This document shows, one piece after another, positions 3,001 through 39,276 of a stretch of DNA of 64,000 nt. How positions within the stretch are numbered: the first letter of the stretch is position 1; every line of letters starts with the position of its first letter. Origin of the DNA: Blasia pusilla (Eukaryota). The stretch covers positions 39,742,001 through 39,806,000 of the forward strand of contig CM114271.1 of NCBI GenBank assembly GCA_050084515.1, given 5' to 3'. The notes under the pieces were generated by a model. The model saw nothing but the letters and a program-made list of their open reading frames with translations, made no database searches and was not told the DNA's origin. The translations under genes and the position numbers were made by a program.

Positions 3001-4243
3001 TGAACACTTCTAGGACCAACACCCGAAATCAAGGATTTCAAAAATGGAGGAGATGATCTCAAGAGAGGTAAATGTATTCTCTCATGGCCACAACACATGC
3101 CATATGGTAAGTCACCAAATGTAGTACCTTTGACCATTTCACATTTCCAATACAAAGCACGGCATGAGGGACATATCTTTGTCATAGAACCTAATGTATG
3201 ACAATCGCTGGTACGATTCAAACTCCTTTGTAATCGCAACTTCCTAATATCACTTTCTTGGAAAATTGGCCTTGTTGCAAGATTAAGTAATGTATTTAAT
3301 CTTACAACTCTATAAAAAATAGACGACGGAGAAATTCTATGAGCATTTGGTATAGTGGCACGTTGTGGAAATAACACAACTCCATTAGCAGACACGACAT
3401 CTATTCTTGACCTTGATTCATCCCCGAGTTGGGCAAGAGTCAACAAATTGTTGACAACTTCATTTTGAACTGGAAGAGGAAGAGTCTTCGACAAATTGTC
3501 GATAATTTCATTGTGAATTGGAGTAGGAAGAGTGTTAGATAACTAAACTTGTGATGGCCCAATTGTGGATGTATTCTCAATAACTTCATGGAATACATTG
3601 TAAACTAACTCGAGTCTTTGCGATATATAAATGTATTATATCGATTTTTCGCTCTCTTCTTCATTTTCTCCTACTATTATTCCATCCTCATTGGAAGGCC
3701 TCAGAAAATATATCAAAATATTAATAAGAATAAGTACAAATCAAATATGAAGTGAATAAAATGTAGAAAGTTAGATCTAAATATTTTATCAATGGTATAG
3801 TTGCAATACTCTTAGGTTGAACTTGATCATGAAGTGCTTTCCTTCTTTTTCTATACTCTAGATAGTAATTCCTCTTTTTTTCTTTGAGAGCCTCCATTCT
3901 ATCAACGCGAATAACACGCTTTCGTTTTTGGGTTTCGCCACGTAGAACCTTCTCAAAGCCACATATATCGACAGGATTCAATGGGATTGGAAGTCTGGAA
4001 CAACCTTGGAAAGAAAGTATCACTTGTGCCCCCTCAAGCGTCGGTCTAGTTTCTATTTTCGTTTGATTTCTGCAGCTTACTCTATTCTAGCTCAAACGAA
4101 ATGTAAACGCGCCGATATCTACTGGATATGAATGTTGAAAGCTTACGAAATAAAATGAAAAGTCCAGATTTTATAAGTGGGGAAATTGGACATGCTAAAT
4201 GAGCTTCAAATTAGTAAACTTGCGTTGGAAATGTTTCAAGTCA
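1..4243 (-). mobile_element. Helitron-1: decayed Rep/helicase coding region (Rep half; helicase half runs off the left edge)
   Basis: Minus-strand fragments: CPSCRALYWKCE..MCCGHERIHLP (about 3200-3070), GLQGMLHECNPYVKIF, frameshifted FLTMTCNPKW (about 1930) and VEFQ..LPHVH HUH motif (about 1740), MVHGPC..NPNVPCM, FKEAVVQLGLLEDD. Colinear with Helitron-2 at 33300-36700; many stops and frameshifts. Confidence 0.9.
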
Positions 4244-4247
4244 GAGT

Positions 4248-4890
4248 TGTCTTGCGCATACACATCGCTACACAATATACATCGTTGTCACCGAACACAC
4301 ACACAAACACGCACGATCCCATGCTAACTCATGACATCCAAACAACGAGACAAGAAGTTCTAAAATATCTCCAATAAAGTAAGATCCAATCTCTCTCTAC
4401 ACAATCTCACACCATAGCTCTCAAAGGTGTGCACTCTCTCTCATGTCAAACCAAACCCACTCTCCTAATAAGAGGCTTGGATTACACTCACAAGGCAAGG
4501 GACCATAGCTCCGCCGCCTCATGCCAAGAGGTTCAACAAAGAGAGAATGAGCTCTAAAGCTCTCTCTCCTTGGGATATATATCCCTCCCCTCTTCCAAGC
4601 TCTCTGCATGGTAACCTATTCTCCCAAGTCACCTCCTTGGCTCTTGACCTAATGTAGGAGGTCAAGGGCCACTTACCAAAAATAGAAAGTTGATCATATA
4701 CTCAAAATGACAACTACCTAAAATAGTAAGTTCTTCAATATGGCTCCAAATGAGCCAAAACGAAGGGGAAACCTACTCTCTCATGTTTTTTCGGGGCTTC
4801 AGCAAGTCATCCTCAACCTCCTAGGCATGCCCTCCACTACTCTTGAAGACGCTCTACTAGATCTCACCGATCTATGCTAAAGGACGTGAA
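4248..4890 (-). repeat. Complete LTR copy (about 640 bp), left boundary of the 18-kb insertion
   Basis: Starts TG at 4248 after GAGT (4244-4247). 4248-4375 is repeated at 4894-5021 and 4494-4890 is repeated at 21826-22222, which ends CA and is followed by GAGT. TATATAT near 4576. Strand is inferred. Confidence 0.8.
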
Positions 4891-4893
4891 AGT

Positions 4894-5021
4894 TGTCGTG
4901 CGCATACACATCGCTATACAACATACATCACTGTCATCGAACACACACACAAACACGCACGATCCCATGCTAACTCATGGCATCCAAACAACGAGACAAG
5001 AACTACCAAAATATCTCCAAT
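4894..5021 (-). repeat. Partial LTR copy (matches 4248-4375)
   Basis: tgtcgtgcgcatacacatcgct...aaaatatctccaat matches 4248-4375, then similarity stops abruptly. Confidence 0.85.
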
Positions 5022-5195
5022 CGCCCTACTAGCTGGTGGTTAGGTCCCTCTAACTCCAGATAGCCATCTATCCCTAACTACCATGACATACATCTCTCAG
5101 ACGCTAAGAGCAAGAAGGCTGGGTGCTCATGTGGCCCCATCGTTAGTCGCCTTCCTATCATCCATGTCAGAGAAAAAGTCGGGATCGAAACCTAC

Positions 5196-6600
5196 CTAGT
5201 ATATCCTATATGTACATTTGGGACACATCCATCGTCCCTGAGGAATCCTAGTGAGAGGTGGCGTCATACATGCCATATGCCAACCTCTCGAACAACCATC
5301 ACAGACTAGCATCGTGGCCGCACCACGGGCAGAACCACACAACATACAACGCAAGCTTGCAGGAACTACTGCTAAGCTCGGATCCATTGTACCATCAACG
5401 TTAGGAAGGTGATATGGCGCACAATTACGCACATGGCCCTTCCATACCATACCATCGCATCCCTCCAGCAAGAGAACATCGGATGGCAAAACGTCATGCA
5501 CTCTCAGGATAGTGCGCCCTACAGTCACATCCAACGTCGTCGGTGCCGTCTGTTGCAAGTAGACATAATCTCCCTCATGAAACCTCCAGATAGTTGGTCG
5601 ATAACCACCACCCCGAATAGTCGCATACCTCAACGTATCTCGATGTTGCGCAATCGCCAAGTTCTCGAACGCCATAGGCGTCACTCTCCAAAACAACTCA
5701 GCCCTCTGAGAACATGCTCGCACCCATACATCTGGGTCATCAAGGTCCAGCACCTCACCAGCATCTTGACGAATGGCCGTAGGTAAATCTGGCTCTTGGC
5801 CATAAAGTAGCAAGTACGGTGAAAAAGACGCTAAGGATGCGTGCATGCTGAATCTGTATCCCATCGCCAACCATGGCAGCTGGAGGTCCCAATCTCCTAG
5901 GTGACCTCTTTGCAAGCCATACTTGCGTAAACCCCTCTTCATCATCTGTACAACTCTCTCCGCTAATCCATCCTCCTCGGGATGATCTCACAAAGTCGTG
6001 CGATGGTCAATGAGCGTCTGATCACACAAGGCCTGGAACTCACCGCAAAACTCGGTACCCTGGTCTGTCAACACCTCAGCCGGTGCGCCATAATGACTCA
6101 ACACTCTGTCAAAGAAGGCATAAGCTACTCCGTCACTCGCTTTGTCAGACAATGCAACCAACTCGATCCACTTCGAGAAGTGCTCGACCATCACCAACAC
6201 ATAACGACTGTGGGCAAAGGTCCTGCAAAATCCAAACTCCATCTATGCCCTAAGCCCATGATCGGTAATGGATGCAACTGTGGAGTCGAGGCCTTGAACG
6301 ATGCTTGGACCCGATCACACACCATGCACCTGGCAACAAACCGATGAACGTCACTCTGCATGCCTCGCCATCAATACTGAATCTAAAGCAAGTTGTATGT
6401 CCGCTTCACCCCAAAGTGACCCAACTCCTCATGGGCATGCTGCACTAGTCGTGCTCTCTCTGAAGGATGCAGCACTACTCGTACTCTGCCATCCTCCCAA
6501 ACCCTCAAAACATGTGTCCCCTTCCAACGGAACCGTCTGGCCCGCTGTAGGATCCGATCCCACTCTCTAGCATCCACGGTGCTCGCAACGCTGCCAGTAC
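5196..6600 (-). pseudogene. Gypsy integrase (zinc-binding region, rve core) with C-terminal PHD finger
   Basis: HAHEELGHFGVKRT, VLVMVEHFSKWIELVAL, VLTDQGTEF, WDLQLPWLAMGYR..SPYLLLYG; the ORF 5196-5945 ends in a C4HC3 motif. Internal stops present. Confidence 0.9.
5214..5348 (-). other. PHD finger (C4HC3) coding segment
   Basis: CMLC-x11-CDGC-x4-HMAC-x12-WMCPKC, including the conserved Trp before the last Cys pair. Confidence 0.92.
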
Positions 6601-6799
6601 GAAGGTACTCCAAGACTACTCCATCATCATGAATATCTCGGCCACTTTTCGTCTCCTCACTGGCCTCGGGATCCAAGGACTCTCCACTAGACCTCGCCAT
6701 CAAAGTCTCCACACTCTAGCTCTCCATAGCCAACATGCCTAAACAGGCTGATGCGTGCCATCCTGGCACCGACTCCTCATCACTCTCTCCATGCCATCG

Positions 6800-8153
6800 A
6801 GCTTCAGTCGCATCTCGCTCACTTGGGCATGGGTTACGACTCAACCCATCTGCATCCTGGTTGAGCGTCCCAGGACTATGTACCACCTGAAAATCATACT
6901 CCTGCAACAACAGAGCCCATCTCGCAAGCTTCTCTATAAGCTTGTCGAACTCCATCAACCACTTCAGTGGTTGATGATCAATGATGATGGTAAAGGGGTT
7001 GCCGAATAAGTAACACCTAAAATGCGTAACATCCCACACCGCAGCCAAGCACTCATCCTCATACGAGCTGTACTTTGCCTCTGCAGCGTTGTTTTAGCGA
7101 CTAGCGTAAGCCACCATGAACTATCTATCCTCATCATCTTGCTGGGTGAGCACCGCTCCAAGCCCCAACATGCTCCAATCTATGTGCAACTGGAAAGGAC
7201 GCCCTCTGATCGGTCTCTTCAAGATGGGCCCGGACTTCAACATGTCCTTGAGAAACTGAAATGCTCGCTCCTGCTCATCCCCCCAGTGCCACTCGTGATC
7301 CACCTTGGTGACAAAGGTAACCATAATCAAATGAATCTCTTGACGTATCGCCGATAGAAGTTCGCCAATCCCATGAATGCGTGAACACAGCTCACATCTG
7401 TAGGGCGAGGAATGCGTGAGATAGCCTCTACTTTTTTTTGCTGAACACCAAGGCCCCTTGGGTATATCGTATGACCCAAGTACTCAATCTGGTCGTAGAA
7501 GAACTTGCACTTGCCTGGATGTAGCTTCAGCCCATGTAATTGCAATCGTCGAAATACCTCCTCTAGATATCGCTCATGCTCCTCAATCGTGGCGCTAAAG
7601 ACTATGATGTCATCAATATAACACCTAGCAAAATCCAAACCAGCCAAGATCCTATCCATGACCCTTTGAAACTCAGCCAGGGCGTTCTTTAACCTAAATG
7701 GTAAGAACCTCCACTGGTACAAACAATCCTTCCCGTGAGGATCGATGCCCCAAAATGACGTCTTCTGCTTGTCCTCCAATCTGATGGGCAGTTGATGGTA
7801 TCCGGCTTGCAAATCCAATGAATCGAAAACCTTTGCGTGACCAATCGCATCAAAGATCTCCTCAGGGGTGGGCATGGCATACCTATCGGACTTCGTCTGC
7901 TGATTGATAGATCGGTAATCCCCAAACATCCGCCTATCCGTCTAGTTGCCATGCACATCCTTCTTGGCGGGCATGATAGTGGCCGATGCATACTCCCCAT
8001 GCGACATCTTCACTAGTCCTCCTCCAACCAAGTCCTGGCTCCTACTCTGAATTAGATCCCTCTCCATATCACTGTACCTGTAGGGTCGTCGGAAGATCGG
8101 CGTATCACTCGACAACTCAATGCAGATACCCCTTCCCTTCAGCGTACCCAAAT
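6800..8153 (-). pseudogene. Reverse transcriptase and RNase H of the DNMT-Gypsy element
   Basis: PIFRRPYRYS, GDYRSINQQTKSDRYAMP, SLDLQAGYHQ, RCYIDDIIVFS, LKLHPGKCKF; RNase H FQLHIDWSMLGLGAVL, FTIIIDHQPLKWL, ARWALLLQEYDF. Confidence 0.92.
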
Positions 8154-9148
8154 TGTTGCGCCCCTACTCTCCTTGAACGTCAATCTTTAGTGTTGCGGAA
8201 GCGTGCGTTCAGTAGGTCACGAACTCATCGCCGATCTGCACCCAAACACGCACTCTCGTTAGTCGGGTTTGGCCAACCGGCGTTCCAACCCACCGAGTCC
8301 TCAACTCGGCGTCTCATCAAGCTCAACCTTCCTTAGTTCCTAGCTTCCAACACATGGCAAGTCCTTCAAGACTTGGAACAGACTTCCTGGTTAGTCCAGG
8401 GATCTGAAACGGCACTTGCACGCCTAGCGATCCCAAGTGTTCAACGGCCCTTGTGTGAGTTCCGAACCGAGACCCAAGTAATTGAGTCGCGGTGTGAAAT
8501 CCAAGAGGGATGTCTAAAATCGCCTCAATGGACTTGGTGCAGGTTTTCCAACCCAACGCCCAAACTCGCGTTCCGTTCCATGCCCTTGAGCGCCACGCGC
8601 CCAAAGTGAGGTTTGGGTTCCAAGCACTCGGAGACCTTCCCCTTACTAGTACTTATGGGGTTCTCCAATAACCCCTCCCCTTTGGGAATAGAGGTTCGGG
8701 CCCTTCATTGTGGCCCTCAACCCGACTCCACTTACAATCTTTTTCGGGTCGTATCTCGGTCGCTGCTTATGCGTTTGCAGCGATCTGTGGTGCGATTGGA
8801 CCGGATCTCAATAAGCTTTCCAACGCACCCTTATTTGCTCCAAACGCATCTTGGCGCTAAAAGTTATGGCCATAAATACAGTCGGAAACTCTCAAACGCA
8901 AGTGGCGTTCCAAATCCGGATCTTTCCTTTGGCAACCCACTTCCTAGACTCGACTTCTTTCAAGTCTCATTCCGCGTTTGGTCCAGGTTTCTGAGTCGCG
9001 ACCATCACATCTGAAACGCAACTTCTCGCTCGCGTCTCGTCTCTTGTCTCCTCTTTGAGACAACTCCAACGCGCAAACCATCTTAGCGTGAGCCCGCTAA
9101 TGTTCCGATGTTCCGCTTGGCACTTGTTTGGTCATGAGGGTCGCGACA
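8154..9148 (-). repeat. 3' LTR of nested chromovirus
   Basis: Direct repeat of 14437-15432; adjacent polypurine tract AAAAAGAGGGGTGAG on the minus strand (9149-9163). Confidence 0.95.
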
Positions 9149-12100
9149 CTCACCCCTCTTTTTAGAGCTTGATGCCCTCATCAACGGAAACTTTTATTAT
9201 GTCAAGTCTCCTGGGCAGCCTACCCCTTGACATTGAATTGCGTTCTGGTGGCTAACCCGCAATTCCTCTTAGTCTCTAGTTGTCGCTTTGCCCCACTTAG
9301 AATTATTAGCCTCTCATCTTCGATAAGCCTGGACTAGTTCCAAGGAACTAACCTATCAAATAAGCTAACTAAGTGTGCAACCTTAGACTCTTTCGACTCA
9401 TTATTGTAAACATCACACCTGTTTACCTGGTCCACAAATCGTACTACTATTGGGTCGCTCTCGTATTTGACTTAGGCGCGTCACTCAGTTTACTTATGTG
9501 GCCACAAGTAAGATCACCCCAAGCCCCAAGACAGACTTCATCTCCCCTTGCCGACGCTAGGGCGAGCCCGAGTGTAATCCAACACAAGGTCTGTTCTAGG
9601 TGCTTATCCACATACGAGCTCTCACCTCAAATACTCCTTGTCCGTCCCTCTTGTCGTACATTCTAAGTCTATGATGAACGACTCATAGCCATGCACTACC
9701 ACATACAAATTGCAATCAACACGGTATCGAATCTCCAAATCCATACACTCCTTTATTGCAACACTAGCATATTCTAATTCTGCCTTCGCCCAAGATTCCA
9801 CGGTTACAAGTCATGTCTCTAGCTTCTCCTCGTACTAACGTATGTGCTTCGCTTGTGTTCGCTTGAAGTCACGCGACAACTCTTGCGCGTGTTCCAAATC
9901 CGCCTCCAATCCAAGTCGCCTCCTTCACATGGTAGCCCTTCCATTTGACCAAGTATTCATACTTGTTGGCCCGACGCCTCGAATGTAAGATGGTCTCCAC
10001 CGAACTCCGGGTCTTCATTTACAATGACCGGGTGCGGTCTCACCACTGTCTCGCTCGAAACGTCCATTATCTTGAAGGTATTTCTTCAACAATGACACAT
10101 GAAAGGTCGGGTGAATCTTGAACTCGTCCGGAGCCTCAACGTATACACATCCTCAAACGGGTTTGCCACAATCACATACGGTCCAACATACTTGGCAGAC
10201 GACCATTTTGCAGACAACTCTTTCGGAAGAGTGAGATTCTTCACACTCAACCACACTTGTTCTCCAACTTGGAACACTTGGCGCCGACTCTTATTAGCAT
10301 GCTTAACGTACCTCATTTGAGCCTTTGCAAGACTTAGCCTCGCGCTCTCTTTCGTTTCGCATCTCTACCAACAAACTTTTGCCGCCGCTTGTCGTGTTCG
10401 TGCCAATGTAGTACCCTTCGAAGGGCTAGATCAAGAGGCCCTTCGGCTCGTCCATTTGCCAGGAGAAACGGAGATTAGTTGCGAGAATGCTTGGTCGAGT
10501 TGTAGCGATATTCGCCATGCTCACCACGACCCAATCGCGTTGATCAAAGATCGACATAATTCCTCAATCTTGATTCACGATAGAGTTTACCTTTGTCTGT
10601 CCATCCGTCGTGGGTGGAAAGCCGTCATCAAACTCAGCTTGGTCTTAAACCTTCGAACAAGTGCTTCGAAAGCATCGGTAAACTTTGATCCCGATCTCGA
10701 AACAATGCTCCCGGCAAACCATGAGCACGCCACCGCCTATCGAGGAATAGTTGCGCCGTCAGATACGCCCCGTGCGGAATCCACCGTCGGCACGAATCTC
10801 GCCAACTTGCTAAACCGATCAACAATCACAAGTATAGCGTTGTAGCCCCCAGATTCCGGAAGACTCGTGATGAAATCCATACTCACACTTTGCAAGGGTC
10901 CTTCGGGGATCGGCAAGGGATGCAAACAAGCCCATTTCTTATCATAAGAGACTCTATTCGCTTGGCGAGTCACACTGGTCTTCACATATTAAGCAACATC
11001 CTCCTTCATGTTGGGCCAAAAGAACCGTTTCGATGAAGAGCTAAGCGAGATTTCTCTCCTTTATGTCCCGCCAAGGGCCCGTCGTGACATTCCGCTAACA
11101 CCTTGGTTCGCATTCTGCCTTGCCCTACATAGATCCTACTCTGTTTGAACCTTAGTAAACCGTGCCTCAAACTTATGTTGGCCACCTTCTCACCCTGCTT
11201 CAACTTCCTCAGGTATTCCCCTGCTTGAGCATCCTTCATATATCCTTCACGAATCCTTCTCTCCAGATCTGTTTCCTTAGGGAACATTGCTCTCAAGACA
11301 GTGTGTCTTCGATGGCATGTGTTCCTCCTTGCGACTTAACGATCTGGAATCACATGATCTTTACCTGGCTTGTGGATCAACTCTACATCCATCAGCGCCA
11401 AGGTATCATGCCACCGCAGATTGTTTGGTGTCACTCGATCTTGGGTCTCAAAATACTTGAGTGATATATTATCGGTGAATACTCGAGTCTGTGGAGCCCT
11501 AGATAATGCCGCCACTTCCTCAAGCAATGTACCACCGCGAACAACTCTTTTCGTGAGTAGGCCATCTCCTTTCGATTGTCGCTAAGCTTCTTGCTCTCAT
11601 ATGCCACCGGTCTCCTTCTTGCACCAACATTCCGCAATCGCGAAATCACTAGCATCGGTATGCACTTCGAACCGTTTGTCAAACTCCGGGAGCTTTAACA
11701 CTGGTTCCTGCGATAGAATCTGCTTCACTCGATTGAATGCCTCATTAACTTCCTGGGTCCAAGTCGTGTGGCAAACTTTTCTATCCAATCCGTGAGAGGT
11801 CTCACAATCCCCGAATTTTTTTTCACATAAGTACGATAAAATTGCACCGCACCTACGAACCTCCTCATCCCCTTTACACTGGATGGGGGTTCCCACTCGG
11901 AAATCGCCTTTACCTTTTCCATGTCTGGACTGACGCCATCTGCACTGACCACATGACCCAAGAATTTGATCTTACTCAAACCAAATTCGCTCTTCTCTAC
12001 ATTCGCATACAGCTGATTTGCCCTTAGCTTAGACAAGACCGCTCTCACATGTCGAACGTGCTCCTCTAGTAACTTCAAATAGATAAGTATGTCATCGATA

Positions 12101-14421
12101 TAGATGATAACATACTCATCCATTTCCTTGTGAAAAATGGAGTTCATCAATGTGGTGAACGTCGGAGGTGCGTTACATAGACCGAAAGGCATCACTACAA
12201 ACTCAAAGGAACCGTATCTCGTCCTGCACGCAATCTTCTCCACATCTGCCTCGGCAATCCGAATCTGGTAATATCCGACTTCAAGTCAATCCCTACTGAA
12301 ATATCTCGCGCTTTGCCGACCCTATCAAAGAGATCATCTATCCTCGAAGCGGATAATTGTTCGAACCGTCACTTTGTTGAGGTGCACGGTAATCAACACA
12401 CTGACCTCATCTTTCCATCCTTCTTCTTTACAAAGAGAACAGGTGCTCCATAAGGTGACTTGCTAGTCCTAATGTAACCCTTTTCCAAGAGCTCACTTAA
12501 TCGCTTTTCAACTCAAGAAGTTCCTCCTGATTCAACCTATATGGTGCTTTTGAAGGCGGTTGGGAACCGGTATGATCTCTATCTTATGATCTACGGCTCT
12601 ATGCGGCGGCAATTCGGTCGGAAGCTCATTTGTCAAGACATCCTCAAACTCCTTGACCACTTCGGAGTGGTTCAGGATTCCCTTTGAAGCGGTGTCCCGA
12701 TCTCTGCGATATCGCTTGTAGCCTCCTCCACTTGTCTCATCAAGCGAGAAATCCATCCTCCAACTCGTCATGCTCCTCCTTGTGATCGAGTTCACCAACT
12801 CCATCTTCGCTGGAACCTCACGGACCAACCGCACTTTTGTAACCGTTTGCCTTTTAGCAAGACGCTCAACCTCAATGGTCGGCGTCTTAACTCCACCTCA
12901 TCATACGCATCTAGGAATGTATTCCCAAAACTCCGTCAATGCCGTCCATTTCGCATAAAGTGAAATTCTCCTTCAACTCGAATACCCGATCCCATGTCAA
13001 TCCCAAGACCAAATCGAAGTCCGATGAGACTTGCCTCCTGCAAATCCCACTCGAATGGGCTGCCAAATCGCTTTAGAGGTAGACGACCCGAGTTCCTTCA
13101 CGATTCTTGGGCTTAGGAAGGAAGCACTGTATCACGAGCAACAACACATCGCGATCAACAATCTTGGATCTTAGGTACACCAAACTATCGTCCTCTTGGT
13201 GACTTGAAGGGACGTCTCGAGATCCGCCACAGATGCTTAGCAGCAAACGCAATCATACTCCCATTACTAACCTTCGGTTTCGAACACCCTTTCGACAGGT
13301 GCCCCGGTTCGCCACAGTTGTAGCATACGACCTTGCCGTTTCCTGTCTTTGAGTGTTGTCCTCCTTTCGGCTTTGCATTGTTCCAATGACGACTCTCTCG
13401 TTAAATCCGCCCCCACTCCAGCCTCTTTTGAACGCCTCCTTATTTTTCGACTTCTTCGAAAAAACTTTTGACTCGAAGGGTTTCTGGGTTTGGACCTCAT
13501 CGTCCCCAATCCGCTCCGCTAGCTTCAGAAGGTCGCGCAGGTCTCTGGCAACGTCGGCATTCGGTAAAGGCCTTCTTCGCTCGGCTTGAGTCCATTAATG
13601 AAGATAGCCTTCTTCGCGTGCTCATCCATCTTCGGACTAGAAGTCAATTTCGCACTAAACTCCCTCACATACACGCTTAAGGAACCACTCTGCTGCATCC
13701 GCGACGCATTCCACCGTGTCACGCAACCCTTGGTACTCGGAGTGAACCGATCCCCAATCAACTCCTTGAACTCCTCCCAACTCGAGAGGTGACTCGCCGC
13801 CCAGATATTCCTCTCGTTGAGCGGTCCACCATTGTAGAGCATGATCCTTCAGAAAGTAACGGCTACCGTCACCTTGTTACGCTTTCGGCAGACCCCCTCT
13901 GCGCCTCGGCAAATCTGATTCGGCCGTAAGGAAATCCTTCACTTTTGCGAGCGCGCCACTCCGATAAATGGCGTGGCGGTTCGTCTTGCAGAGCCTTTTG
14001 CACGCTTTTCGGTTTCGAGTGGCCTCTAACTCGCAATCCGCTTGCTTTTTCGGGACATCTTCTCCACCAACACCTTCAACAAGTCCAACGCCTGGCTCGA
14101 CTCCGTCCTTTCCCGAAGTTTGGGCCCACTGGCCCCGCGGAAGGAGTCGCCATGGGGCGTCCTCACGATCGGGCGTTGCTCTTCGAGTCTCCGTCTCCTC
14201 TATAGCTTCACGGTCCGGCATTGGTTCCTCTCTCGGTTCACGCCGCTTGATTCGGTGCTTCTTGGGTTGTTCTCCCTCGATCGCCATCTCCAAGCCAACT
14301 CACTCAGATCTCCTCCTCGTTTCTTGCGTCCCTCCTCGAGCGTCCGAGTCTAGCTGCTACCTTGAAATTTCCCAAGCATCCGGCTGATCCCACGACCCCA
14401 AGTTCTCGCTCACCAAGGATA

Positions 14422-14434
14422 AGCTCTGATACCA
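14422..14434 (-). promoter_or_regulatory. Primer binding site (tRNA-iMet type)
   Basis: TGGTATCAGAGCT on the minus strand, 2 nt inside the 5' LTR. Confidence 0.9.
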
Positions 14435-14436
14435 CT

Positions 14437-15432
14437 TGTCGCGCCCCTACTCTCCTTGAACGTCAATCTTTAGTGTTGCGGAAGCGTGCGTTGATGGGTC
14501 ACGAACTCATCGCCGACCGCACCCAAACACGCACTCGTTAGTCGGGTTTGGCCAACGGCGTCCAACCCACCGAGTCCTCAACTCGGCGTCTCATCAAGCT
14601 CAACCTTCCTTAGTTCCTAGCTTCCAACACATGGCAAGTCCTTCAAGACTTGGAACAGACTTCCTGGTTAGTCCAGGGATCTGAAACGGCACTTGCACGC
14701 CTAGCGATCCCAAGTGTTCAACGGCCCTTGTGTGAGTTCCGAACCGAGACCCAAGTAATTGAGTCGCGGTGTGAAATCCAAGAGGGATGTCTAAAATCGC
14801 CTCAATGGACTTGGTGCAGGTTTTCCAACCCAACGCCCAAACTCGCGTTCCGTTCCATGCCCTTGAGCCGCCCCGCGGCGCCCAAAGTGAGGTTTGGGTT
14901 CCAAGCACTCTCGGAGACCTTCCCCCTTACTAGTACTTATGGGGTTCTCCAATAACCCCTCCCCTTTGGGAATAGAGGTTCGGGCCCTTCATTGTGGCCC
15001 TCAACCCGACTCCACTTACAATCTTTTTCGGGTCGTATCTCGGTCGCTGCTTATGCGTTTGCAGCGATCTGTGGTGCGATTGGACCGGATCTCAATAAGC
15101 TTTCCAACGCACCCTTATTTGCTCCAAACGCATCTTGGCGCTAAAAGTTATGGCCATAAATACAGTCGGAAACTCTCAAACGCAAGTGGCGTTCCAAATC
15201 CGGATCTTTCCTTTGGCAACCCACTTCCTAGACTCGACTTCTTTCAAGTCTCATTCCGCGTTTGGTCCAGGTTTCTGAGTCGCGACCATCACATCTGAAA
15301 CGCAACTTCTCGCTCGCGTCTCGTCTCTTGTCTCCTCTTTGAGACAACTCCAACGCGCAAACCATCTTAGCGTGAGCCCGCTAATGTTCCGATGTTCCGC
15401 TTGGCACTTGTTTGGTCATGAGGGTCGCGACA
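14437..15432 (-). repeat. 5' LTR of nested chromovirus
   Basis: Direct repeat of 8154-9148, TG..CA termini, followed by the PBS. Confidence 0.95.
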
Positions 15433-15879
15433 CAAATCCTCCATGCTAAACGCAAAGCAGCTCCTATAACTCTGATGTATTCGGCGCTGCTCTCCTCTTG
15501 TCAACTTAGGGCCCATATCTCTGGCTCCCAAGTCTCCATCGTGACTACGGTAGGACTCTCCGGTGCGGGTATCGGTGGTTGCTATGGTGCAACCCCGTCT
15601 CGAACAACAACACTTGGCCGCTCTCCGCAAGCCAACTGCAAATTGTGATCTCCACCACTTGCAGTGCCCGAAACCACACTCGATGTTGTGGCTATCATCT
15701 CCTTGCATACGTGCAAAACATCCCAAGAAGTTCAAGGGTGTCTCTTGCGATCTCCCCTGGTGTGTAGATCTCCTCGGGTCTCGCCCCCAACCACTGCCTC
15801 CACTGTCTCGATAGGCATGAGGCTCATCAACGCAACCGCTGTGATCTGTCGCAATCCCATACGACGCTGCTCAGCCACT

Positions 15880-16800
15880 CCCAAGTTGAGGATCCATGTC
15901 AAGCAGTTCAGGTCCATCGCCTGACCCAAGACATGGCGTCGTGATGCCTCTGACACTGATGGTACTGCCATCATTCATGTGGGAAATCCCATCGCTCGCT
16001 CTCTCTCTTCGGTGTTGGGCTCCACCAACCGTTGAACTTGGTCATCCCAAACTAAGCCAGGACCGGCCTCCTTGTATGTATAGGAAGTGGGAAAACTTTG
16101 CCTATTGTGTTGACCACAGTCAACGGTGGTCGATCATTGTGCCTCATTGCCTGTGATCGACGACCTGGATCTATAATGGAATCCACTAACAAATGGGAGG
16201 GGCGGTCCACTCTAGCATATGCCCTCCATAACACCGCATGGGGCACCAAGTTGGTCCACCATAGACGCGATCGATGGGCTCTAGAACCTACACTCGCCGC
16301 ATCCAAGAACACTGCTGGGCCGATCTAGGCACGCACCTGATGAGCACTCGTCACCACTCGTGACCTGGTGTCTCCTAAGATCGGCACATTCTACATAATG
16401 TAGGCTGGATAACGAGACTGGTGCTCCTGCAACTGCCGTAACCTCAACATCTCCCAAAATAACCTGTACCGAGTGTCAGTCAACCCCTTGCCTCGTCCAG
16501 CACTTGATTGGCCCTGACATGGCCAACGGTGACCAAATCAATGGTCCCTACCCGCTCTAAGTCTTGCGCCCCCAACAACGAAATATCCCTCGGTAGGGAA
16601 CTCTCGTACCCCTATACTGTGGACGCAGACAATAAGTCAGGAAAACTTAGGCATAACTGCGCCACATGTCGTAGTGAGACGCGCCTCGCAACATCATCTT
16701 TCTCCACATACAGGTACTCCTGTACTCGCACTCTTGCCTGCAAAACAGCAGCTAGCCGGTGTTAATCCCTCCAAAGAGATCTAACACTCGAATACCCTCC
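15880..16800 (-). pseudogene. C5-cytosine DNA methyltransferase catalytic domain (DNMT3-like) within retrotransposon Pol
   Basis: Manual translation across frameshifts: I IRVLDLFGGINTG; II YLYVEKDDVA; III LPRDIS; IV IDLVT..WPCQGQSSAGRGKGLTDTRYRLFWEMLR; VI YIM*NV (ENV); VIII LDAASVGSRAHRSRLWWTN; IX EERERAMGFP; X RRHVLGQAMD. All in canonical order. Confidence 0.92.
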
Positions 16801-17179
16801 TCCGGGGTACACCACACAATGGGTGTGGTATCCAAGAGTGTCATTGTAGCACTCCCTGCTACCTCAGGTTCCTCAGACCCGTCATGCTCCGGTGCAAACG
16901 CCTCGCTCCATGCGCTCTGCAAGTGCTCATCTGCCAATCGTTGAAGCTCCTCAGTCGAGCCCCACAACGGCACCTCTCCTCCATGGAATGATGCAACTAC
17001 CATAACACTCCTCTCCATAGAAATGTCAGGAACGGGAGTATCCTCTGCATGGACATGTCCCTCGATCAAATCACTAGGCCAAGTGATGGCACTACTAAAT
17101 GCTGCTAAGGTTGCCATCTCTCCTGGCCGTTGCTCGATCACTACACGTGTGAATTGAACGGGTAATGAGCTAAGGCGCC

Positions 17180-17525
17180 CATCACCTGACTGCAATCCTG
17201 GTCTGTAGGACCCTGACTCCTCCCAGTAATCCATGGAAAACCCCATCGGGTATAACACTGCTCCACCAACCAAGACGTCGTAGGACTCTGCATCAGTCAC
17301 TATCGCCTTGGTGCGCACCACGGACTCATCTATAGGATGTCTCGGGCGAATCCTCACCACAACCTCCTGTCGGGTGATATACTGTGTGGTACTCGCTCCA
17401 TCCAAGGATGTGTGTATCCGGAATGGACAACGCTCCACATCGGCTCTCATCAAGCCCAATCCTCTGAATGACGCTTTCCCCAACATCAAGGGTTGCGCTC
17501 CTGAATCCAACAAGACGCGCTACGG
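17180..17525 (-). pseudogene. Retroviral-type aspartic protease
   Basis: VLLDSGAQPLMLG catalytic DSG motif and downstream YDVLVGGAVL, in the same ORF (16752-17513) that runs into MTase motif I. Confidence 0.85.
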
Positions 17526-18075
17526 ACTAAAAGCTCTTCCTCTAGGACTAACCAACAGGAAGACCTCTCCTCGATTATCCAACAACACAACACCATGAGA
17601 AGCCATGGCACGCTCTATTGCGGGTCTAGCGGGCATCTCCGCCATCCTAGCAGCCATAGCCTGCCATGAATTTGACGTGGATGGCCCGAGCATCCGCTCC
17701 GAGGGCAGGTCCATCACCTCCTCTGCAATCACCTTTGCACGTGATGCACGAACTCCAACTCCGCGCTCACATAGTGAAGCGGCCAGCCAAAAAGCCTCGA
17801 CGAGCGTACCCCCCAACGTCATAACATTGGAAGCAGAAAATAAAGGAGTGCGGTACACAACGGTGGCCGCCCCCAACAACGTGCTCGACACATGCCCCTC
17901 CTGAGCATCAACAATAGGAGTCGTCGCACTTGCTTCTCCCATCGCCCTCCGTGCTCTGCACACCAACAACATTACCAACTCTCCAGGAACTTTGATGAGG
18001 ACCCATTGATGGGGTCCTCATCGCTTCGGACAACGTGAAAGACTGAGGAAGCCTAGTCTATTTTCTAGCTTCCCC

Positions 18076-19700
18076 TCACTGTGGATCCAACTCTGCGGCT
18101 GCTCCACGCGTCACAACTGCGGCGGCCTCCATCTGGGCAACCCCGCACATCCAACCAGGATCCTCCAGATCTCTGGTTGCTCCATATGATGTCGATGCCA
18201 CAGATCCGGCATCGGGTAACCTCAATGCCATAGCGGCAATCTCCTCCTGTAGTTGCTGTATTTGAGTAGCCATCCTAGCCTCACGTCCGGCGTCTCCCTC
18301 GGCGCGTCTAGATGGTGGTACTCTACCTCCTCCATGGGCAGCTCCACCACCCTGTCAGGAAACTCCAGCTCCTCGTCCCCCAACGGGACCACCTGGTGCA
18401 CAATCTCTAGCCCACCCGGACCGGCTACTCGCTCTGGTGCCCTCTCTGGCCCTCGGTCCGGACGTAACTCAGGATGTAAACTGAAACACCTAGCGCGTGT
18501 ATGACCATACCTCTGACAATAGTCACACTGATAACCTCTTGGTGCAGCACCATCTCCTCCTCCATGCTGAGACACGCGTCCATGACCCTGACGAGTGCAA
18601 TGGCGTTGATGATGGGCTCCACCACAAGACCAACAAGTAATAGTAGGCGGTTGTTGTTGAGCCGCATATGAAGGCGCAAGTCTCTGTGCCACGGGCTCCC
18701 GCTATCCTCCCTGAGCTCGTGGTACCACAATTGACATATCTCGGAGTCCACGTTGCTGTATAGGTGGCGCAGCCAATCGCAACTGCTCTCGCCCAGAACC
18801 CATGGTGGCTACGCTATCCTCCGCCATATTGTGCTCAATGTTCTTGGCGGTCCTAAAAACATCTCTCAACGTCGGGGAGGTGTTCATAAGAAGCACCCCC
18901 TCCCGCACCCGTGGCCATAGGGTGTGGTCCAGCATTGCGTACCATGATTGGATAGCCTGAGCCTCTGTCATCCCCTGAGTGACGTTGATCAACCATCGCA
19001 AGCGAGTGTAAGCCTCACGTAAACTCTCACCCGGGCGCCTCTGGAAGTTGTGGATGCTCCGCAACTTCTATGTCCGTACCCCCTGGTAGCTCGCCCTCAA
19101 CTCAGCAAAGAACTCAACCACGGGGTTGAACTTGGGACGAACCCGACTAGACGGTGCAACTGCTCTAGTGCGAGTGACCCCTCCTAAAACATCACTAGTG
19201 GAAGAGGAAGTAGCCTCTCCTGACTCCTCCTCCTCATCTAGGAACGGCTCCGCCCATGACACATAGTGTGGGTCGTAGTAGAGTCGTCATGCTTCAATCT
19301 CCTTGACATATATGTGGGGAAACTCATGGTAATCGTCCATGGGTGCCCCCTCTAAATGTTGGAACATCTTTGTTCCATCATGTCAGAACGGGTTGAACTC
19401 TCTAGAAGAGTCGCACCAACTCCTAAACTCTGCTATGAAATCGTGCAACTCAATCGTACCCTCTTTGACGTGAAAACCCTCGTGGTCCTCTACCCAGTGG
19501 CCGTCCATCTTGTGCCCAACTGGTAGGACCACTCACAATGTGTGGCGATGTGCTCGAAACTCCTCTACACCCTCCCCTTGTCCGACGATGACACGAAGGA
19601 GGTCGAGGTGGTCCTGAAGTGAAGACCCTCGGAACCTCACACCACTCCGCGTAAAACCTCTAGAGCTACTCTCGGGTTCACCACCTGCCTCTCAAAGTCC
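18076..19700 (-). pseudogene. Gag remnant with two zinc knuckles
   Basis: FQRRPGESLREAYTRL (retrotransposon gag motif), CWSCGGAHHQRHC and CDYCQRYGHTRARC; broken by stops. Start uncertain. Confidence 0.8.
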
Positions 19701-19701
19701 C

Positions 19702-19740
19702 GAACAGACGCCGTGATGACCCTCGTCACGGCGTCTGTTC
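19702..19740. repeat. Perfect 15-bp inverted repeat (hairpin)
   Basis: gaacagacgccgtga-tgaccctcg-tcacggcgtctgttc. Confidence 0.9.
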
Positions 19741-21048
19741 ATAACCCTTCTCACCCAATCACTCTTGCCTCGCGAGTAATCCCTCAATCATTCATCCCAA
19801 ACATGCGACACTCGATCTACACTCTACCTCCCCGAGACATGTAACGTGCGGCAATAAGCGGCGTGGTGGGGCAAATCAACCAAGCTATCATTTCATCGAT
19901 AACCTACCCTCAACTCTGGATATCCCACACAGGTCTATGTCCCCTAAAGCACATATATAAATGATTCTCTCAGCATCCACACACCCAGTATCCCCAAATA
20001 AACTACCCAAATCCCAGAATCCCTCACACGTGTAGGGTAAAGGACCATAATGGGTAACGTGAACACATGTCAATGTCGCTCCCCAGCAATTTCAAATCTC
20101 GACCCCAACTCGGTCGTGGAGACAACTCCTCCAATCAGCAAGTCATACTCCTCCCGTACTGACGTTGCTCAAAACTCCTCGATAGACGATACGGTTCCAA
20201 CGGAACGGTACGGCGTTGCAGGCGGCATAGAACGGCTACGAACGGCACGGCCCTCGATGATGGGATGCGGCACTCGGCGGCATACCCTCCTCAATCAAAA
20301 ATAAACCCACACTCTGCTCCATAATGCCTGAGCAGATCCACGATTGAGATGGTGCGGTGTGGCCACGAGTGGCACGGTGCGGCAATCAGCGGCGTTGCGG
20401 CTACGGGCGTCACGACACGGTACCCGATCGTCGTTGAGCGGCTACCAATCACAACATAGCAGCATGAAATCAAAACTCAAACACTATAACATGAGGTCAT
20501 ATGCCATCACAAGTTGATGATGGTGGCGGCCAAAATAAAGTACGTGATGGCGACGCAAGTCCAAAAATTAACGAACGTTGTGGAAGACCCTCCACTCCGT
20601 AACGGCGACAATGGCAACCAAGGATGGACAACGGACGGTGGACCATTGACGATGACGGTTGACCGTTGATGGTGACGGTCGAATGGTGACGGTGACGATT
20701 GGTCATTGACGGAGACTATGACGGTGACGGCCGCCGCCGGTGTGGCGGCTGGTTTAGGGTTTGCATATTTTAACCCTAAAAATCGCCTAGCAATGGCAAT
20801 TTTTCAAGATTGACCATAACTTTTTGCTCGCAACTTTGAATTGCGCATTGTTTGTTGCACAACCTGCACAACTTCACGATCTACGCCAGTATCAAAAAAA
20901 AATTAGAATTGGACATTCCAGTAAAAATTGACAGGGATTGTTGTAAAGCCCAATGTCTCTTTCTCCTACACAAAATTCGGCAGCGCTTCCGCGCTGATTC
21001 CTCCCAACAAAAATGTAAAACCTATAAAAATGAAGATAAGAAATCGGG

Positions 21049-21827
21049 CTTATTGGCCATAGGGCTTCAAGCTGACTTTTTCCTTGAGTTTTTAGGAAAG
21101 ACGTGTAGCATCGAGTGTAAAGAATATCTTCAAAAGTGTATGAGGCTCATGTGTATACAACGAATTGCTTAACTCTAATCTTTGATCTCCCGACTGCAGA
21201 AGGAGATAGAATGGCTTTTGGATCTCAATTCAAAGACCTCCAACTCTTTGGATGGTGATGTTGTTCTTATTATCTCTAATTCGACTGTGGATCGGGTGTG
21301 GCTATTCATTAGACTTAATTGGTCCTTGGTAGGCTGTTATTCCAAAAGGAAATCAAGCTTTCTAAAATATCTATGGTTCAGGAATTTTGTAAATCCAGCC
21401 CGGGAGTGTATGACTAGTTGTCTTCATACCCTTTTGTCCGTATGGAGAGATGTACCCAATGGATCCTGATATCTGCATTTGGAATACATTTTATATTGTT
21501 TATAAAGTGAAGTGCTAGGATTTTGTTGGTTAGTGTGACAAATGCATTCTTCACACGTTTCTTCCCTTTGATCGATCACACTAAAATGGTACTGTTAACA
21601 CAGATCATGAGGACCTCTCCAACCATATTAATTCTCGGTTTACAGTAAATATATCCTGGCAGAGCTGGGTTTGGAAATAGGGAAACCTTCATGAGCTAGG
21701 CTAATCTTTTGCTAGGTGTGCCACTGGATTATCCAACCACTATGGATGGATTGAAGCCCAGGGGCTGTGAACGTAACATCCTTGCACTGAAGTACGGGGG
21801 GAACTCCCGAAAATGAATGCCAGATGG
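21049..21827 (+). pseudogene. Duplicated fragment of the TPK locus (most of last intron, last exon, 3' region)
   Basis: Aligns by eye to 41620-42412 in the same orientation, from cttattggccataggg to gccagatgg; the exon copy is frameshifted. Confidence 0.92.
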
Positions 21828-22222
21828 CAAGGGATCATAGCTCCGCCGCCTCATGCCAAGAGGTTCAACAAAGAGAGAATGAGCTCTCAAGCTATCTCTC
21901 CTTGGGATATATACCCCTCCCCTCTCCCAAGCTCTCTCCATGGTAACCTATTCTCCCAAGTCACCTCATTGGCTCTTTACCTAATGTAGGAGGTCAAAGG
22001 CCACTTACCAAAAATAGAAAGTTGATCATATACTGAACATGGTAGTTACCTAAAATAGTAAGTTTCTCAATATGGCTCCAAATGAGCCAAAACGAAGGGG
22101 AAACCTCCTCTCTCATGTTTTTCGGGGTCGGAACATGTCATCCTTGACCTCCTAGGCATGTCCTCCACTACTCTTGAAGACGCTCCACTAGATCTCACCG
22201 ATCTATCCTAAAGGACGTGACA
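21826..22222 (-). repeat. Partial LTR copy (matches 4494-4890), right boundary of the 18-kb insertion
   Basis: ggcaagggatcatagctccgccgcc...aaggacgtgaca, ends CA, followed by GAGT (22223-22226). Confidence 0.9.
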
Positions 22223-23504
22223 GAGTTCATCTTCAACGTGTGTTTGTTGTGCTAAGATTTCCTTGCGACGGGCTCACCTTCTTTTGTTATGCATTCGCAT
22301 GCATCAATTTACTAAAGCCAGGAAAATCCGTAGGATTTGATGGAAGAGGAAGTATGTACAACAATTAAGTTGATTGCATGAGAAAAATATATTCTCGAAA
22401 TAATGGTATGTAAGGCATCACCGTTGAAATGGAAATAAGATGCTTACTTCCCTACCCTATACAAAGGTGATTACATGGGGGAGGTGTTCTTCAATACTTC
22501 AATATGTCTTCCCGAACTTTGTTATGAAATTGGCATATTTCTAATAACATCAAGTGGCCGTCTCTCCATGTTTCGTGATGATCTGCCAACACTCACCATC
22601 TACATGACACACCACGAAAGTATTAATTAAACTTGAGAATTGGAATAAAGTGATGAAAAGAATAAAGAATAAAAAGAAAAGAAAAGAAAAAAGAGAGGAA
22701 AGAAGAGAAGGGAAATTAGTAGGGGCAATTTTTCATTTCCAATTTTATTTCCTGAAAAAAAAATGAATAGAAAAAAATAGAGAGAGAATTAAATTTCTAT
22801 AAAAAAGATAGAGAGAGAGGGAAAGAAAAGAATTTAGGGAAGAAGAGTAAATGGGAAGTTTTTAATTTTTAATTTTTATTTCTCTAAAAAATTTAAATAA
22901 AATGGAAAAATAGGGATAAATTTTAAGTGAGAAGAGGAAAAATCCTAAAAAAACGTATGCGGGAACAAATTAGAAAAAAAATTGATGGGAAGAGGGAGAA
23001 TAAATTGGGAAAAAGGTTAAAAAGGGAGAAAATGACTTTAAAAAAATCTTTGTAAGGAAATTAATAAAACGACCAGATTCGATAGCCCAAACATAGCCCT
23101 AACCTAGCCCTCCCAACCCTATGCCCGAACGTAGCCCCTGCACCCTAATGGCGTCGCCTCTGAATCGAAGGGTCAGATATAAATCACCCTCCCATATATC
23201 TAATGGCCAAACATAGTAGGTCGTTAAATAGCTAATATGACGGCTCAGGGTCTGAGCCGCTAGATTGCTCCCCCTCCCCCCATCGTTCCCACCCTCTCCC
23301 TCACTTCCTCGCTCATTCCCCGATCTTTTCGCGCAGTGCTTGTACTGCCTTGATGCGCCCTGCCCCCCAAGTTCGTGCGTTGGGATTGTCTCCGCATGCA
23401 CGCTGGAGCGCCACGATCATCACGGTGCGACCCGAGCGCCTGGACCATCACATTGCATCATGATGCGACCCGCCGGGACTGTCTATTCTACTCTCTTGCC
23501 GGAT

Positions 23505-38430: not shown

Positions 38431-39276
38431 ATTAAATTAAAATAATATTATATGTGTGAAATTTAATATTGACCCATATTTTCTAAATTTTGTAATGCTA
38501 AATTAATTTTATATATGCTAAATTTGGATGCCGGAGAACTGAATTTTGTATTTTAGGAGCTCTAATTCACGTGGGAGAGAGCTTTATTACAAACGAAGAG
38601 TTTGATGACAGCGGTGGTCTTGTTTATGGGACAAGGAGCTCCAAGACTCGTGGAAATGCCCGGCATGTCCCGGAAGTAATTTGGTGCACATGGACTCGTC
38701 TCGAGCATGGTGGGGGACTGGAGATTTAAGCCGCTCGCTGGCAAGCATTCAAACCAACTCGAACCACACTGGACAATAGGAGCAAATACGATTGACTTCT
38801 TTCACTTGCACTTCTCATGTTCAATCCACAATGCAGTGTCGCACTTCTCATGTTCAAACACTCCGCGGGTTTATCGACATGCGTGAGCTTGAAGGGAGAA
38901 AAGTCGTCGTTGCTGCGAGGGCGCTTTAGGGTCGGCATTCTCGGAGCGGGCGCAGAGCTTTGCAGGTCCTGGCTATGGCTCCTTCGATAACGGAGTGTGA
39001 CGAGAGGCGGGACGGTATTATTACTAGTACAACCCCACCAGTCCAGCCGCGTACTTGATGACCACCGCCAGGTCGCATCCATCACTTCTGGGATTGCCCA
39101 ACTCTTACGTATCGTGGGATGCGCTTAGAAAAGGCAAACGCTTGGAAGGTTGCCGCAGGAAATTAGAAAATGATTCGCCATGACCTTGAAGTTCACAGGA
39201 CCAAAGTTGATCGGACTCCAAAGCAGCCGGCTCCATCAGTCAGCATAGGTGAGAGGGAGGAGGGATACCAAGGGGG

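Follow-up and report, generated by a model that had tools for sequence, protein, structure and literature searches.

A putative dead Gypsy-DNMT3 retrotransposon with a PHD finger and split direct repeats in the liverwort Blasia pusilla

Retrotransposons that encode the silencing enzyme of their own hosts are rare and poorly understood, and the published green-plant case comes from a charophyte alga. In de Mendoza et al. 2018 (PMC5890265), the legend of Fig. 4c ascribes to KnitGypsy-Dnmt3 of Klebsormidium nitens the domain content of a Gypsy element and the repeat structure of a DIRS element, and the available text of the same paper treats the DNA methyltransferase (DNMT) gains of the Klebsormidium element, of SymbioDIRS and of SymbioLINE as independent. 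DNMT3s embedded in retrotransposons have also been reported in streptophytes in the accessible text of a further publication (PMC12344493). In the present study we analyzed a stretch of 64,000 nucleotides of the Blasia pusilla genome (assembly GCA_050084515.1, contig CM114271.1, positions 39,742,001 to 39,806,000 of the forward strand), referred to below as the window, in which positions 4245-22223 very probably hold an old and dead copy of the streptophyte Gypsy-DNMT3 retrotransposon in a liverwort.

The Gypsy-DNMT3 architecture is already known, the streptophyte family having first been described in Klebsormidium nitens. What is added here is the occurrence of the Gypsy-DNMT3 family in bryophytes and land plants, its PHD finger and split repeats there, its high copy number and its transcription. 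Gypsy-DNMT3 elements of liverworts or mosses, or Marchantia gene models of this kind, were not found in the searchable text of the literature, whose supplements and figures may show them. Within the main text of the 2018 paper (PMC5890265), neither the term PHD nor the term Marchantia occurs. An earlier note on this DNA, made from the letters of the sequence, had named the 2018 precedent in a charophyte alga and in dinoflagellates, and had done so correctly. The same note had suggested that the architecture might extend to embryophytes; its presence in a land plant was upheld by our analysis, but the architecture itself is not a new one, as can be seen from the Klebsormidium proteins P0099 and P0055 described below.

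Coding region of the outer element and the nested insertion

The features of the element are collected in Table 1. By means of stop-to-stop open reading frames (ORFs) and three-frame translation, the domain order gag, protease, C5 methyltransferase, reverse transcriptase (RT), RNase H, integrase and PHD finger was read on the minus strand. The order Gag-PR-DNMT-RT-RH-INT-PHD (PR, protease; RH, RNase H; INT, integrase), which the earlier note had proposed, is borne out by the ORFs, the Pfam matches, the sequence motifs and the collinearity of tblastn alignments. As judged from the Pfam matches RVT_1, RT_RNaseH, Integrase_H2C2 and rve, the outer element has the Pol order PR-RT-RH-INT with a DDE integrase that is the criterion for Ty3/Gypsy elements. 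The gag region starts with an ATG at 19508, and the stop codon of pol lies at 5196-5198.

Table 1. Features of the outer element and of the insertion nested in it, in window coordinates, listed from the 5' end of the outer element.
Feature	Position	Strand	Evidence or remark
Split direct repeat A1, 5' terminus	21826..22223	-	92.2% identity over 399 nt to A2
Leader, 2.3 kb	19509..21825	-	Between A1 and the gag ATG
gag, two CCHC knuckles	17998..19508	-	tblastn of P0004 residues 19-490; knuckles in ORF 18222-18701
Aspartic protease, DSG motif	17151..17582	-	ORF 16752-17519; aligns to Klebsormidium P0099 protease; in-frame stop 17522
DNMT3-type C5 cytosine methyltransferase (predicted)	15717..16815	-	Motifs, tblastn, PF00145 on one piece
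DNMT-RT linker, resumes at 8153 beyond the nested element	15433..15716	-	P0012 residues 700-730 at 15516-15433, then 728-970 at 8157-7312
Nested Gypsy-type LTR retrotransposon without DNMT	8154..15432	-	LTRs, target duplication, RVT_1 2e-20
Reverse transcriptase, N-terminal side interrupted by the nested element	7312..8153	-	Pfam RVT_1 2.7e-26, ORF 7327-7941
RNase H	6716..7311	-	Pfam RT_RNaseH 3.3e-20, ORF 6716-7093; tblastn; stops 7123, 7096, 6718
Integrase: H2C2 zinc finger, DDE core, C-terminal region	5349..6715	-	Pfam rve 1e-12 (ORF 5988-6242), Integrase_H2C2 7e-5 (ORF 6383-6715); tblastn
PHD finger, integrase C-terminus	5214..5348	-	Pfam PHD 1.5e-11, residues 214-258 of ORF 5196-5987
Split direct repeat B1	4891..5021	-	Abuts A2; 175 nt after the pol stop
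Split direct repeat A2	4494..4892	-	92.2% identity to 21826-22223 (A1)
Split direct repeat B2, 3' terminus	4245..4375	-	92.4% identity over 131 nt to B1

The position of the methyltransferase inside Pol can be observed directly in ORF 16752-17519, in which the DSG motif of the protease and motif I of the DNMT (DLFGGINTG) stand in one frame. This sharing of one ORF had been pointed out in the earlier note, which placed its end at 17513; the sharing holds, and the end is moved to 17519. The relatives' protease region matches the Pfam families gag-asp_proteas and Asp_protease_2. In the three-frame translation, DNMT motifs I, IV, VI, VIII, IX and X are legible in unrearranged order. Moreover, a stop-free piece of 44 residues that contains motif IV (16394-16525, minus strand) matched the family PF00145, DNA_methylase, with an E-value of 2.6e-5 and 24.3 bits (cut-off 22), whereas the earlier note had regarded the absence of any such match as speaking against its reading. 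The DNMT of the window shares 59-60% identity with Marchantia DNMT domains and its RT shares 65% identity with the Marchantia protein P0012, which aligned collinearly by tblastn on both sides of the insertion, from 17924 to 15433 and then from 8157 to 6503.

The insertion itself is an ordinary Gypsy element with long terminal repeats (LTRs) that came later to lie between the DNMT and the RT of the outer element. Its LTRs (8154-9149 and 14436-15432, the start of the first being at 8153/4) agree to 98.2%, and the 5-bp target duplication CAAAT stands on either side of it, at 8149-8153 and 15433-15437; the limits 8154-15432 that had been noted from the letters were therefore exact. An LTR pair and a target duplication, both criteria for Ty3/Gypsy elements, are thus present in the nested element, unlike in the outer one. 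The insertion and its duplication have a combined length divisible by three, and the reading frame is the same on both sides. No DNMT match was found inside 8154-15432 by tblastn with DNMT-bearing queries.

Methyltransferase, PHD finger and their relatives

The methyltransferase of the family is of the DNMT3 type as judged from its sequence, its predicted fold and its unrearranged motifs, an assignment that rests on best matches and motif order. For the DNMT domain of one Marchantia member of the family, the nearest solved relatives by sequence were DNMT3A, 3B and 3C (E 3e-11). The fold was predicted for P0230, a family member of 325 residues with 47% identity to the Marchantia domain and 36-46% identity to the window's pieces, with a mean pLDDT of 95.5; in a Foldseek search with this model, ranks 1-50 among the matches listed were all DNMT3 catalytic domains (best E 9e-21, TM 0.71/0.81). 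An additional search of the ESM Atlas returned generic DNA methylase clusters only. The cysteine of motif IV is kept in 21 of 24 aligned relatives. The motifs FxGxG, PCQ, ENV and RxR are kept in 13 rows of the Marchantia and Calypogeia type, barring three exceptions (motif I is altered in one row, and two gene models have a gap at motif IV). Outside this liverwort-type group motif IV varies, for example with ECQ for PCQ, and in the Tetrabaena protein P0086 the motifs are lost.

The best solved relatives of the PHD finger were PHF12, CHD4, PHD1 of KDM5A/B, KAT6A, DPF3, ATXR5, PHF21A and AIRE, with E-values from 4e-17 to 3e-11. These are domains which we take to read, for the most part, the H3 tail unmethylated at K4.

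A mode of action can be proposed for intact copies. Gag-Pol would be made as in other Gypsy elements, the protease would free the DNMT from Pol, and the DNMT, presumably catalytically competent, would methylate the element's own new cDNA or its fresh insertion. The PHD finger, standing in the place of a chromodomain, would tether the integrase to H3K4-unmethylated, non-promoter chromatin, a proposal made because it resembles readers that we take to bind H3K4me0. As regards the methyltransferase, the discussion of the 2018 paper (PMC5890265) likewise proposes the element's own cDNA or new insertion as the target of Pol-embedded DNMTs.

The DNMT might instead be conserved without methylating the element's own DNA, acting on RNA, serving a structural or DNA-binding function before integration, or contributing to host-wide methylation with self-limitation. 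We regard this as unlikely. It is in line with the same discussion, which leaves the role open and raises RNA methylation and self-restraint, with the report in that paper that the SymbioLINE DNMT, when tested in yeast, was incapable of de novo DNA methylation (PMC5890265), and with the variation of motif IV beyond the liverwort group and the loss of motifs in P0086. The catalytic motifs, however, are kept in the liverwort-type group, DNA-bound DNMT3A/B is matched along the entire length of the predicted fold, and between Klebsormidium P0099 and the window conservation is no lower in the DNMT than in the RT (43% against 39% identity). We favor a DNMT that would act on the element's own DNA.

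Relatives of the element were found in several green lineages. The ORF that joins protease and motif I matched many proteins of Marchantia polymorpha, and others of Calypogeia fissa and Sphagnum, at identities of 51% or less and most of them with PF00145. The integrase-PHD ORF matched Mp_7g09570 of Marchantia at 76% identity, and additionally proteins of Riccia and Calypogeia, two proteins of Klebsormidium nitens and many metagenome polyproteins. The Klebsormidium nitens protein P0099 (KFL_009030040) shows the Pfam order DNA_methylase, RVT_1, RNase H and integrase and is collinear with the window, with identities of 32% in PR, 43% in DNMT, 39% in RT, 45% in RH and 54% in INT, and the Klebsormidium protein P0055 carries rve and PHD. 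The DNMT lies in one ORF with RT, RH and INT in two intact relatives, P0102 and P0057, the former being an uninterrupted PR-DNMT-RT-RH-INT-PHD polyprotein of 1783 residues.

A profile extending from RT to PHD retrieved 80 metagenome loci, 46 of which had sequence room on both sides. Both DNMT and PHD were present in 25 of these 46 loci, PHD only in two, DNMT only in two and neither in 17, so that the DNMT accompanies the PHD in 25 of the 27 loci of this set that have a PHD. The gap between protease and RT measured about 1.55 kb in the DNMT-bearing loci versus about 0.69 kb in the others. The 46 loci share descent and the co-occurrence counts are not independent; the counts therefore mark DNMT and PHD as belonging to one lineage, which is no demonstration of functional coupling. 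DNMT and PHD are fixed modules of the Pol of this lineage.

These findings bear on the view that the locus is a one-off chimera, which would have arisen when one Gypsy copy took up a host DNMT gene or a piece of it, or when transposons overran a DNMT pseudogene. The copy is heavily rearranged, with a nested element and a fragment of the host gene for thiamine pyrophosphokinase (TPK), and foreign DNA was evidently acquired. Nevertheless, we give such an origin hardly any credence. The DNMT occupies an equal position in the collinear relatives from Klebsormidium, Marchantia and metagenomes, nearly all PHD loci with room possess it (see above), motif I shares its ORF with the protease, and a gag-PR-DNMT profile matched 539 representative clusters at E<=1e-30. 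The one-off capture and host-gene readings were rejected on the ground that collinear relatives keep the DNMT. The earlier note had asked whether the methyltransferase is missing from other copies of this RT family, and the relatives keep it. The locus is best read as a copy of an established Gypsy-DNMT3 family.

At less strict thresholds the gag-PR-DNMT profile retrieved 2094 representative clusters (E<=1e-10) and 7243 (E<=1e-3). Among the best 150 of the 7243 representatives, 32 have the DNMT beside the protease or before the RT, 63 have it between RNase H and integrase, 42 consist of the DNMT alone, and 13 of gag only or protease only. A second arrangement, RT-RH-DNMT-INT-PHD, can thus be recognized (proteins P0079, P0078, P0090, P0093, P0098, P0086 and P0305), and its named carriers are chlorophytes, namely Scenedesmus sp. 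PABB004 ('pol' KAF8056149.1) and Tetrabaena socialis. This arrangement was not found in the literature examined. In an unrooted DNMT-domain tree, built from 34 rows with the DNMT between protease and RT (arrangement A) and from 22 of the 72 rows with the DNMT between RNase H and integrase (arrangement B), the two arrangements were separated by one branch with an SH-aLRT support of 99.6; a quick tree of all 105 DNMT rows required two changes of arrangement.

A wider view can be put forward tentatively, although we consider it doubtful that it holds as a whole. Gypsy-DNMT3-PHD would be an ancient green-plant retrotransposon lineage with its own de novo methyltransferase and histone reader and with two Pol arrangements (RT-RH-DNMT-INT-PHD in chlorophytes and PR-DNMT-RT-RH-INT-PHD in streptophytes), active in liverworts, where it would be transcribed and make up a percent or more of the genome. 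If this were true, de novo methylation in bryophytes, the model Marchantia among them, could owe a measurable share to the element-borne DNMT3, and the DIRS-like split repeats together with a DDE integrase would point to an unusual route of integration or cDNA synthesis.

Element ends, decay, transcription and surroundings

On the minus strand the layout of the element is A1, then the leader and the coding region, then B1-A2-B2. In the reading that we consider very probable, these split repeats, and not LTRs, bound an element of 17,979 bp, of which about 10.7 kb remain once the nested element is subtracted. The limits 5196-19700 given in the earlier note are consequently too narrow, the ends lying further out, at 4245 and 22223. 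Inverted terminal repeats were not found by the repeat search. The same geometry with both repeat pairs was observed in four of the 20 metagenome relatives examined (L033, L029, L004 and L036), in which the distance from A1 to the protease is 3.2-4.5 kb, compared with 3.9 kb in the window; four of the 20 have the repeat pair just past the coding end only, and two have the flanking pair only. As an observation in its own right, DIRS-like split direct repeats here take the place of LTRs in a Gypsy element that has a DDE integrase, and a target duplication cannot be seen.

The leader contains a near-perfect palindrome of 39 nt at 19702-19740 (detected by blastn), 200 nt upstream of the gag ATG, and is covered by DNA and RNA reads of the family to at least 20900. 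Its part at 21049-21827 duplicates, at 91% identity, the final exon of the host TPK gene together with the 3' flank (41620-42412) and lies antisense to the element. This fragment directly abuts A1, and its divergence equals that of the element's repeat pairs. Capture, template switching and local duplication are possible origins.

The ends could be explained differently, as those of an ordinary LTR-type Gypsy element with lost or truncated LTRs (about 5022-20800), the A and B repeats stemming from some other repeat or from a segmental duplication. We judge this improbable. It would fit the position of A1 next to a duplicated host fragment, which means that local duplication did occur, the lack of a target-site duplication and the restriction of the read comparison to 15433-20900. 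On the other hand, B1-A2-B2 located 175 nt past the pol stop and A1 located 3.9 kb upstream of the protease reproduce the geometry of the four relatives named above, both pairs are present in four of 20 loci and one pair in six more, the Klebsormidium legend describes such repeats (PMC5890265), and A1/A2 and B1/B2 are equally diverged, each pair having 92% identity. Split repeats as the ends of the Gypsy-DNMT3 copy remain our preferred description.

The host was assigned by means of the TPK exon at 41302-41583, which shares 81% identity with Marchantia paleacea, 80% and 76% with two Riccia species and 73% with Calypogeia, and 67% or less with the seed plants among the matches listed. As the exon is nearest to Marchantia, Riccia and Calypogeia and farther from seed plants, the window comes from a liverwort. 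The land-plant host assumed in the earlier note is confirmed by these identities, and the case of an alga in which the family is already described, which the same note had kept in view, does not apply. The host TPK gene is intact, with exons at 39226-41884, about 20 kb from its copy in the leader.

Compared with intact relatives, the copy contains 21 in-frame stops (seven in gag, one in the protease, five in the DNMT, two in the RT, three in RNase H and three in the integrase) and at least eight frame changes, which substantiates the earlier statement that it is dead. Apart from the stops given in Table 1, those of the DNMT are located at 16614, 16393 (within motif VI), 16327, 15977 and 15734, those of the RT at 7944 and 7329, and those of the integrase at 6385, 6373 and 5990. 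The frame changes include two in gag, three in the DNMT (16755, about 16510-16525, and 16097) and one in the integrase (about 6212-6221).

Raw reads of the same species were compared with positions 15433-20900 (5.5 kb) at a likeness of at least 90%. At the DNMT stops 16393, 16327 and 15734, which are among the 40 of 839 difference rows listed, nearly all DNA and RNA reads have another letter. At five of the six frame-change sites in 15433-20900, one third to two thirds of the DNA reads differ in length, and hundreds of reads end abruptly at the remaining one, 16097. Since the reads differ at stops and frame-change sites, the lesions are largely private to this copy. Of 397 places at which the copy differs from the reads of the family, 224 have T or A in the copy for C or G in the family and 68 show the reverse, and the ratio of observed to expected CpG is 0.72-0.73 in the outer copy versus 1.02 in the nested element. 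The excess of transitions and the depletion of CpG agree with decay by cytosine deamination. Among 27 of the 839 difference rows listed, the transitions lie in CG (10), CHG (8) and CHH (9) contexts, a sample too small to name a context.

In the Hi-C data, 130,537 of 12,895,792 records (1.0%) fell on 15433-20900, and 107,985 of them were 90-95% alike. Three RNA-seq runs contributed 1095, 768 and 1310 reads to the same region, with a strand bias of about 10:1; in the bin 17263-17445, for example, the depth of first mates on the plus and minus strands was 60/4.3, 51/0.4 and 49/2.8. Given the usual chemistry of stranded libraries, the family is transcribed in the sense direction.

It is important to mention the points that weigh against our identification of the locus or against parts of it. 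Pfam was silent on the two long broken DNMT ORFs of the window and on three of the four short stop-free DNMT pieces. The repeat search, blastn and blastn-short with a word size of 7 detected no pair of LTRs flanking the outer element, and inspection to within 2 nt of each end revealed no target-site duplication, so the limits are drawn from two repeat pairs of 92% identity and by analogy with relatives; the proposed anatomy offers no explanation for the host-gene fragment in the leader. As regards transcription, the sense direction assumes the usual library chemistry, 727-1197 of the 768-1310 RNA reads per run were only 90-95% alike, and reads at least 99% alike numbered 5, 3 and 11 per run. 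Transcription of this very copy is accordingly barely shown, and with so few such reads the RNA comes mainly from other copies. Most metagenome copies retrieved are also degenerate: 27 of the 80 loci were examined for intactness, none of them with one long ORF and most without an ORF of at least 250 residues. The activities of DNMT and PHD in the family are predictions, and the histone specificity suggested for the PHD finger derives from the traits of its best PDB matches. Additionally, the discussion of the 2018 paper credits CG methylation to the DIRS DNMT3 of Symbiodinium and not to the Gypsy element of Klebsormidium (PMC5890265).

Several other sequences were observed in the window. Two Helitron-like elements, about 65% alike mutually, are located at 1-4086 on the minus strand and at about 33600-38300 on the plus strand, the latter with Pfam matches to Helitron_like_N (2e-27) and Pif1_2B_dom (4e-15). 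Kin of the nested element is present at about 50.6-57.6 kb on the plus strand, where Pfam detected zf-CCHC, an aspartyl protease, RNase H and Integrase_H2C2. An open ORF of 382 residues at 42778-43923 on the minus strand, in a G+C-rich, strand-skewed stretch adjoining the TPK gene, matched no family in Pfam; it may represent a gene of the host or belong to a further element. A GC skew with a magnitude of about 0.2, with G exceeding C on the coding strand, was seen at 4000-20000, 42000-46000 and 50000-58000; this excess of G over C distinguishes the retroelement stretches from the A+T-rich host DNA.

Significance and comparison with known systems

In Marchantia polymorpha, Calypogeia, Riccia and Sphagnum, relatives of the family carry the annotation of ordinary genes, and surveys of bryophyte DNMT3s, as well as work on de novo methylation, must reckon with DNMT3s borne by transposons. 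Marchantia offers a tractable host in which to ask what a transposon gains from a methyltransferase. Moreover, the presence of a DNMT3 catalytic domain and a PHD finger in one mobile unit echoes the pairing of reader and catalytic domain in the DNMT3 enzymes of hosts.

The closest described system is KnitGypsy-Dnmt3, of which P0099 is probably the published representative, as judged from species and architecture. In both KnitGypsy-Dnmt3 and the element of the window, the polyprotein of a Gypsy-type Pol contains a DNMT3-type domain whose motifs are unrearranged, and split, DIRS-like repeats are common to both, on the published side according to the figure legend (PMC5890265). They differ in host, a liverwort as against a charophyte alga, and in sequence, the identity being 32-54% per domain. 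Furthermore, the copy of the window is dead and interrupted. Whereas the family in Blasia amounts to about 1% of Hi-C reads on 5.5 kb, the available text of the 2018 paper ascribes fewer copies to K. nitens than to Symbiodinium (PMC5890265).

The chlorophyte elements of Scenedesmus sp. PABB004 and Tetrabaena socialis resemble the window element in having a related DNMT, a Gypsy Pol and a C-terminal PHD, but their DNMT is placed between RNase H and integrase, and that of the window element between protease and RT. SymbioDIRS-Dnmt3 and SymbioLINE-DNMT also carry a cytosine methyltransferase in the coding region of a retrotransposon, which in SymbioDIRS is likewise of the DNMT3 type; the backbones of these Symbiodinium elements are different, one being a DIRS element with a tyrosine recombinase and the other a LINE.

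The PHD finger would follow the same logic as the chromatin reader of chromoviruses, which is fused to the C-terminus of a Gypsy integrase. In the window element, however, the reader is a PHD, where chromoviruses have a chromodomain, and there is a DNMT as well; no Pfam match to a chromodomain was obtained in the ORFs of the window, the C-terminal module being the PHD (1.5e-11). In the accessible text of Neumann et al. 2019 (PMC6317226), neither a methyltransferase nor a PHD is mentioned among the plant Gypsy lineages.

With canonical DNMT3 enzymes (animal DNMT3A/B/C; plant DNMT3 and DRM) the family of the window aligns over the catalytic domain only. Its DNMT is located within a retrotransposon polyprotein and has no introns, and, unlike in DRM, its motifs are not rearranged. 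Finally, EpiLTRs are LTR retrotransposons that, like the family described here, join a DNA methyltransferase with a chromatin reader. As far as the available text goes, they differ from it in their modules, namely an adenine methylase, a chromodomain and a DNMT whose sister group is DNMT4, and the acquisition of their DNMT is stated to be distinct from that of the streptophyte Gypsy-DNMT3 elements (bioRxiv 10.64898/2026.05.21.726589), to which the copy in Blasia very probably belongs.

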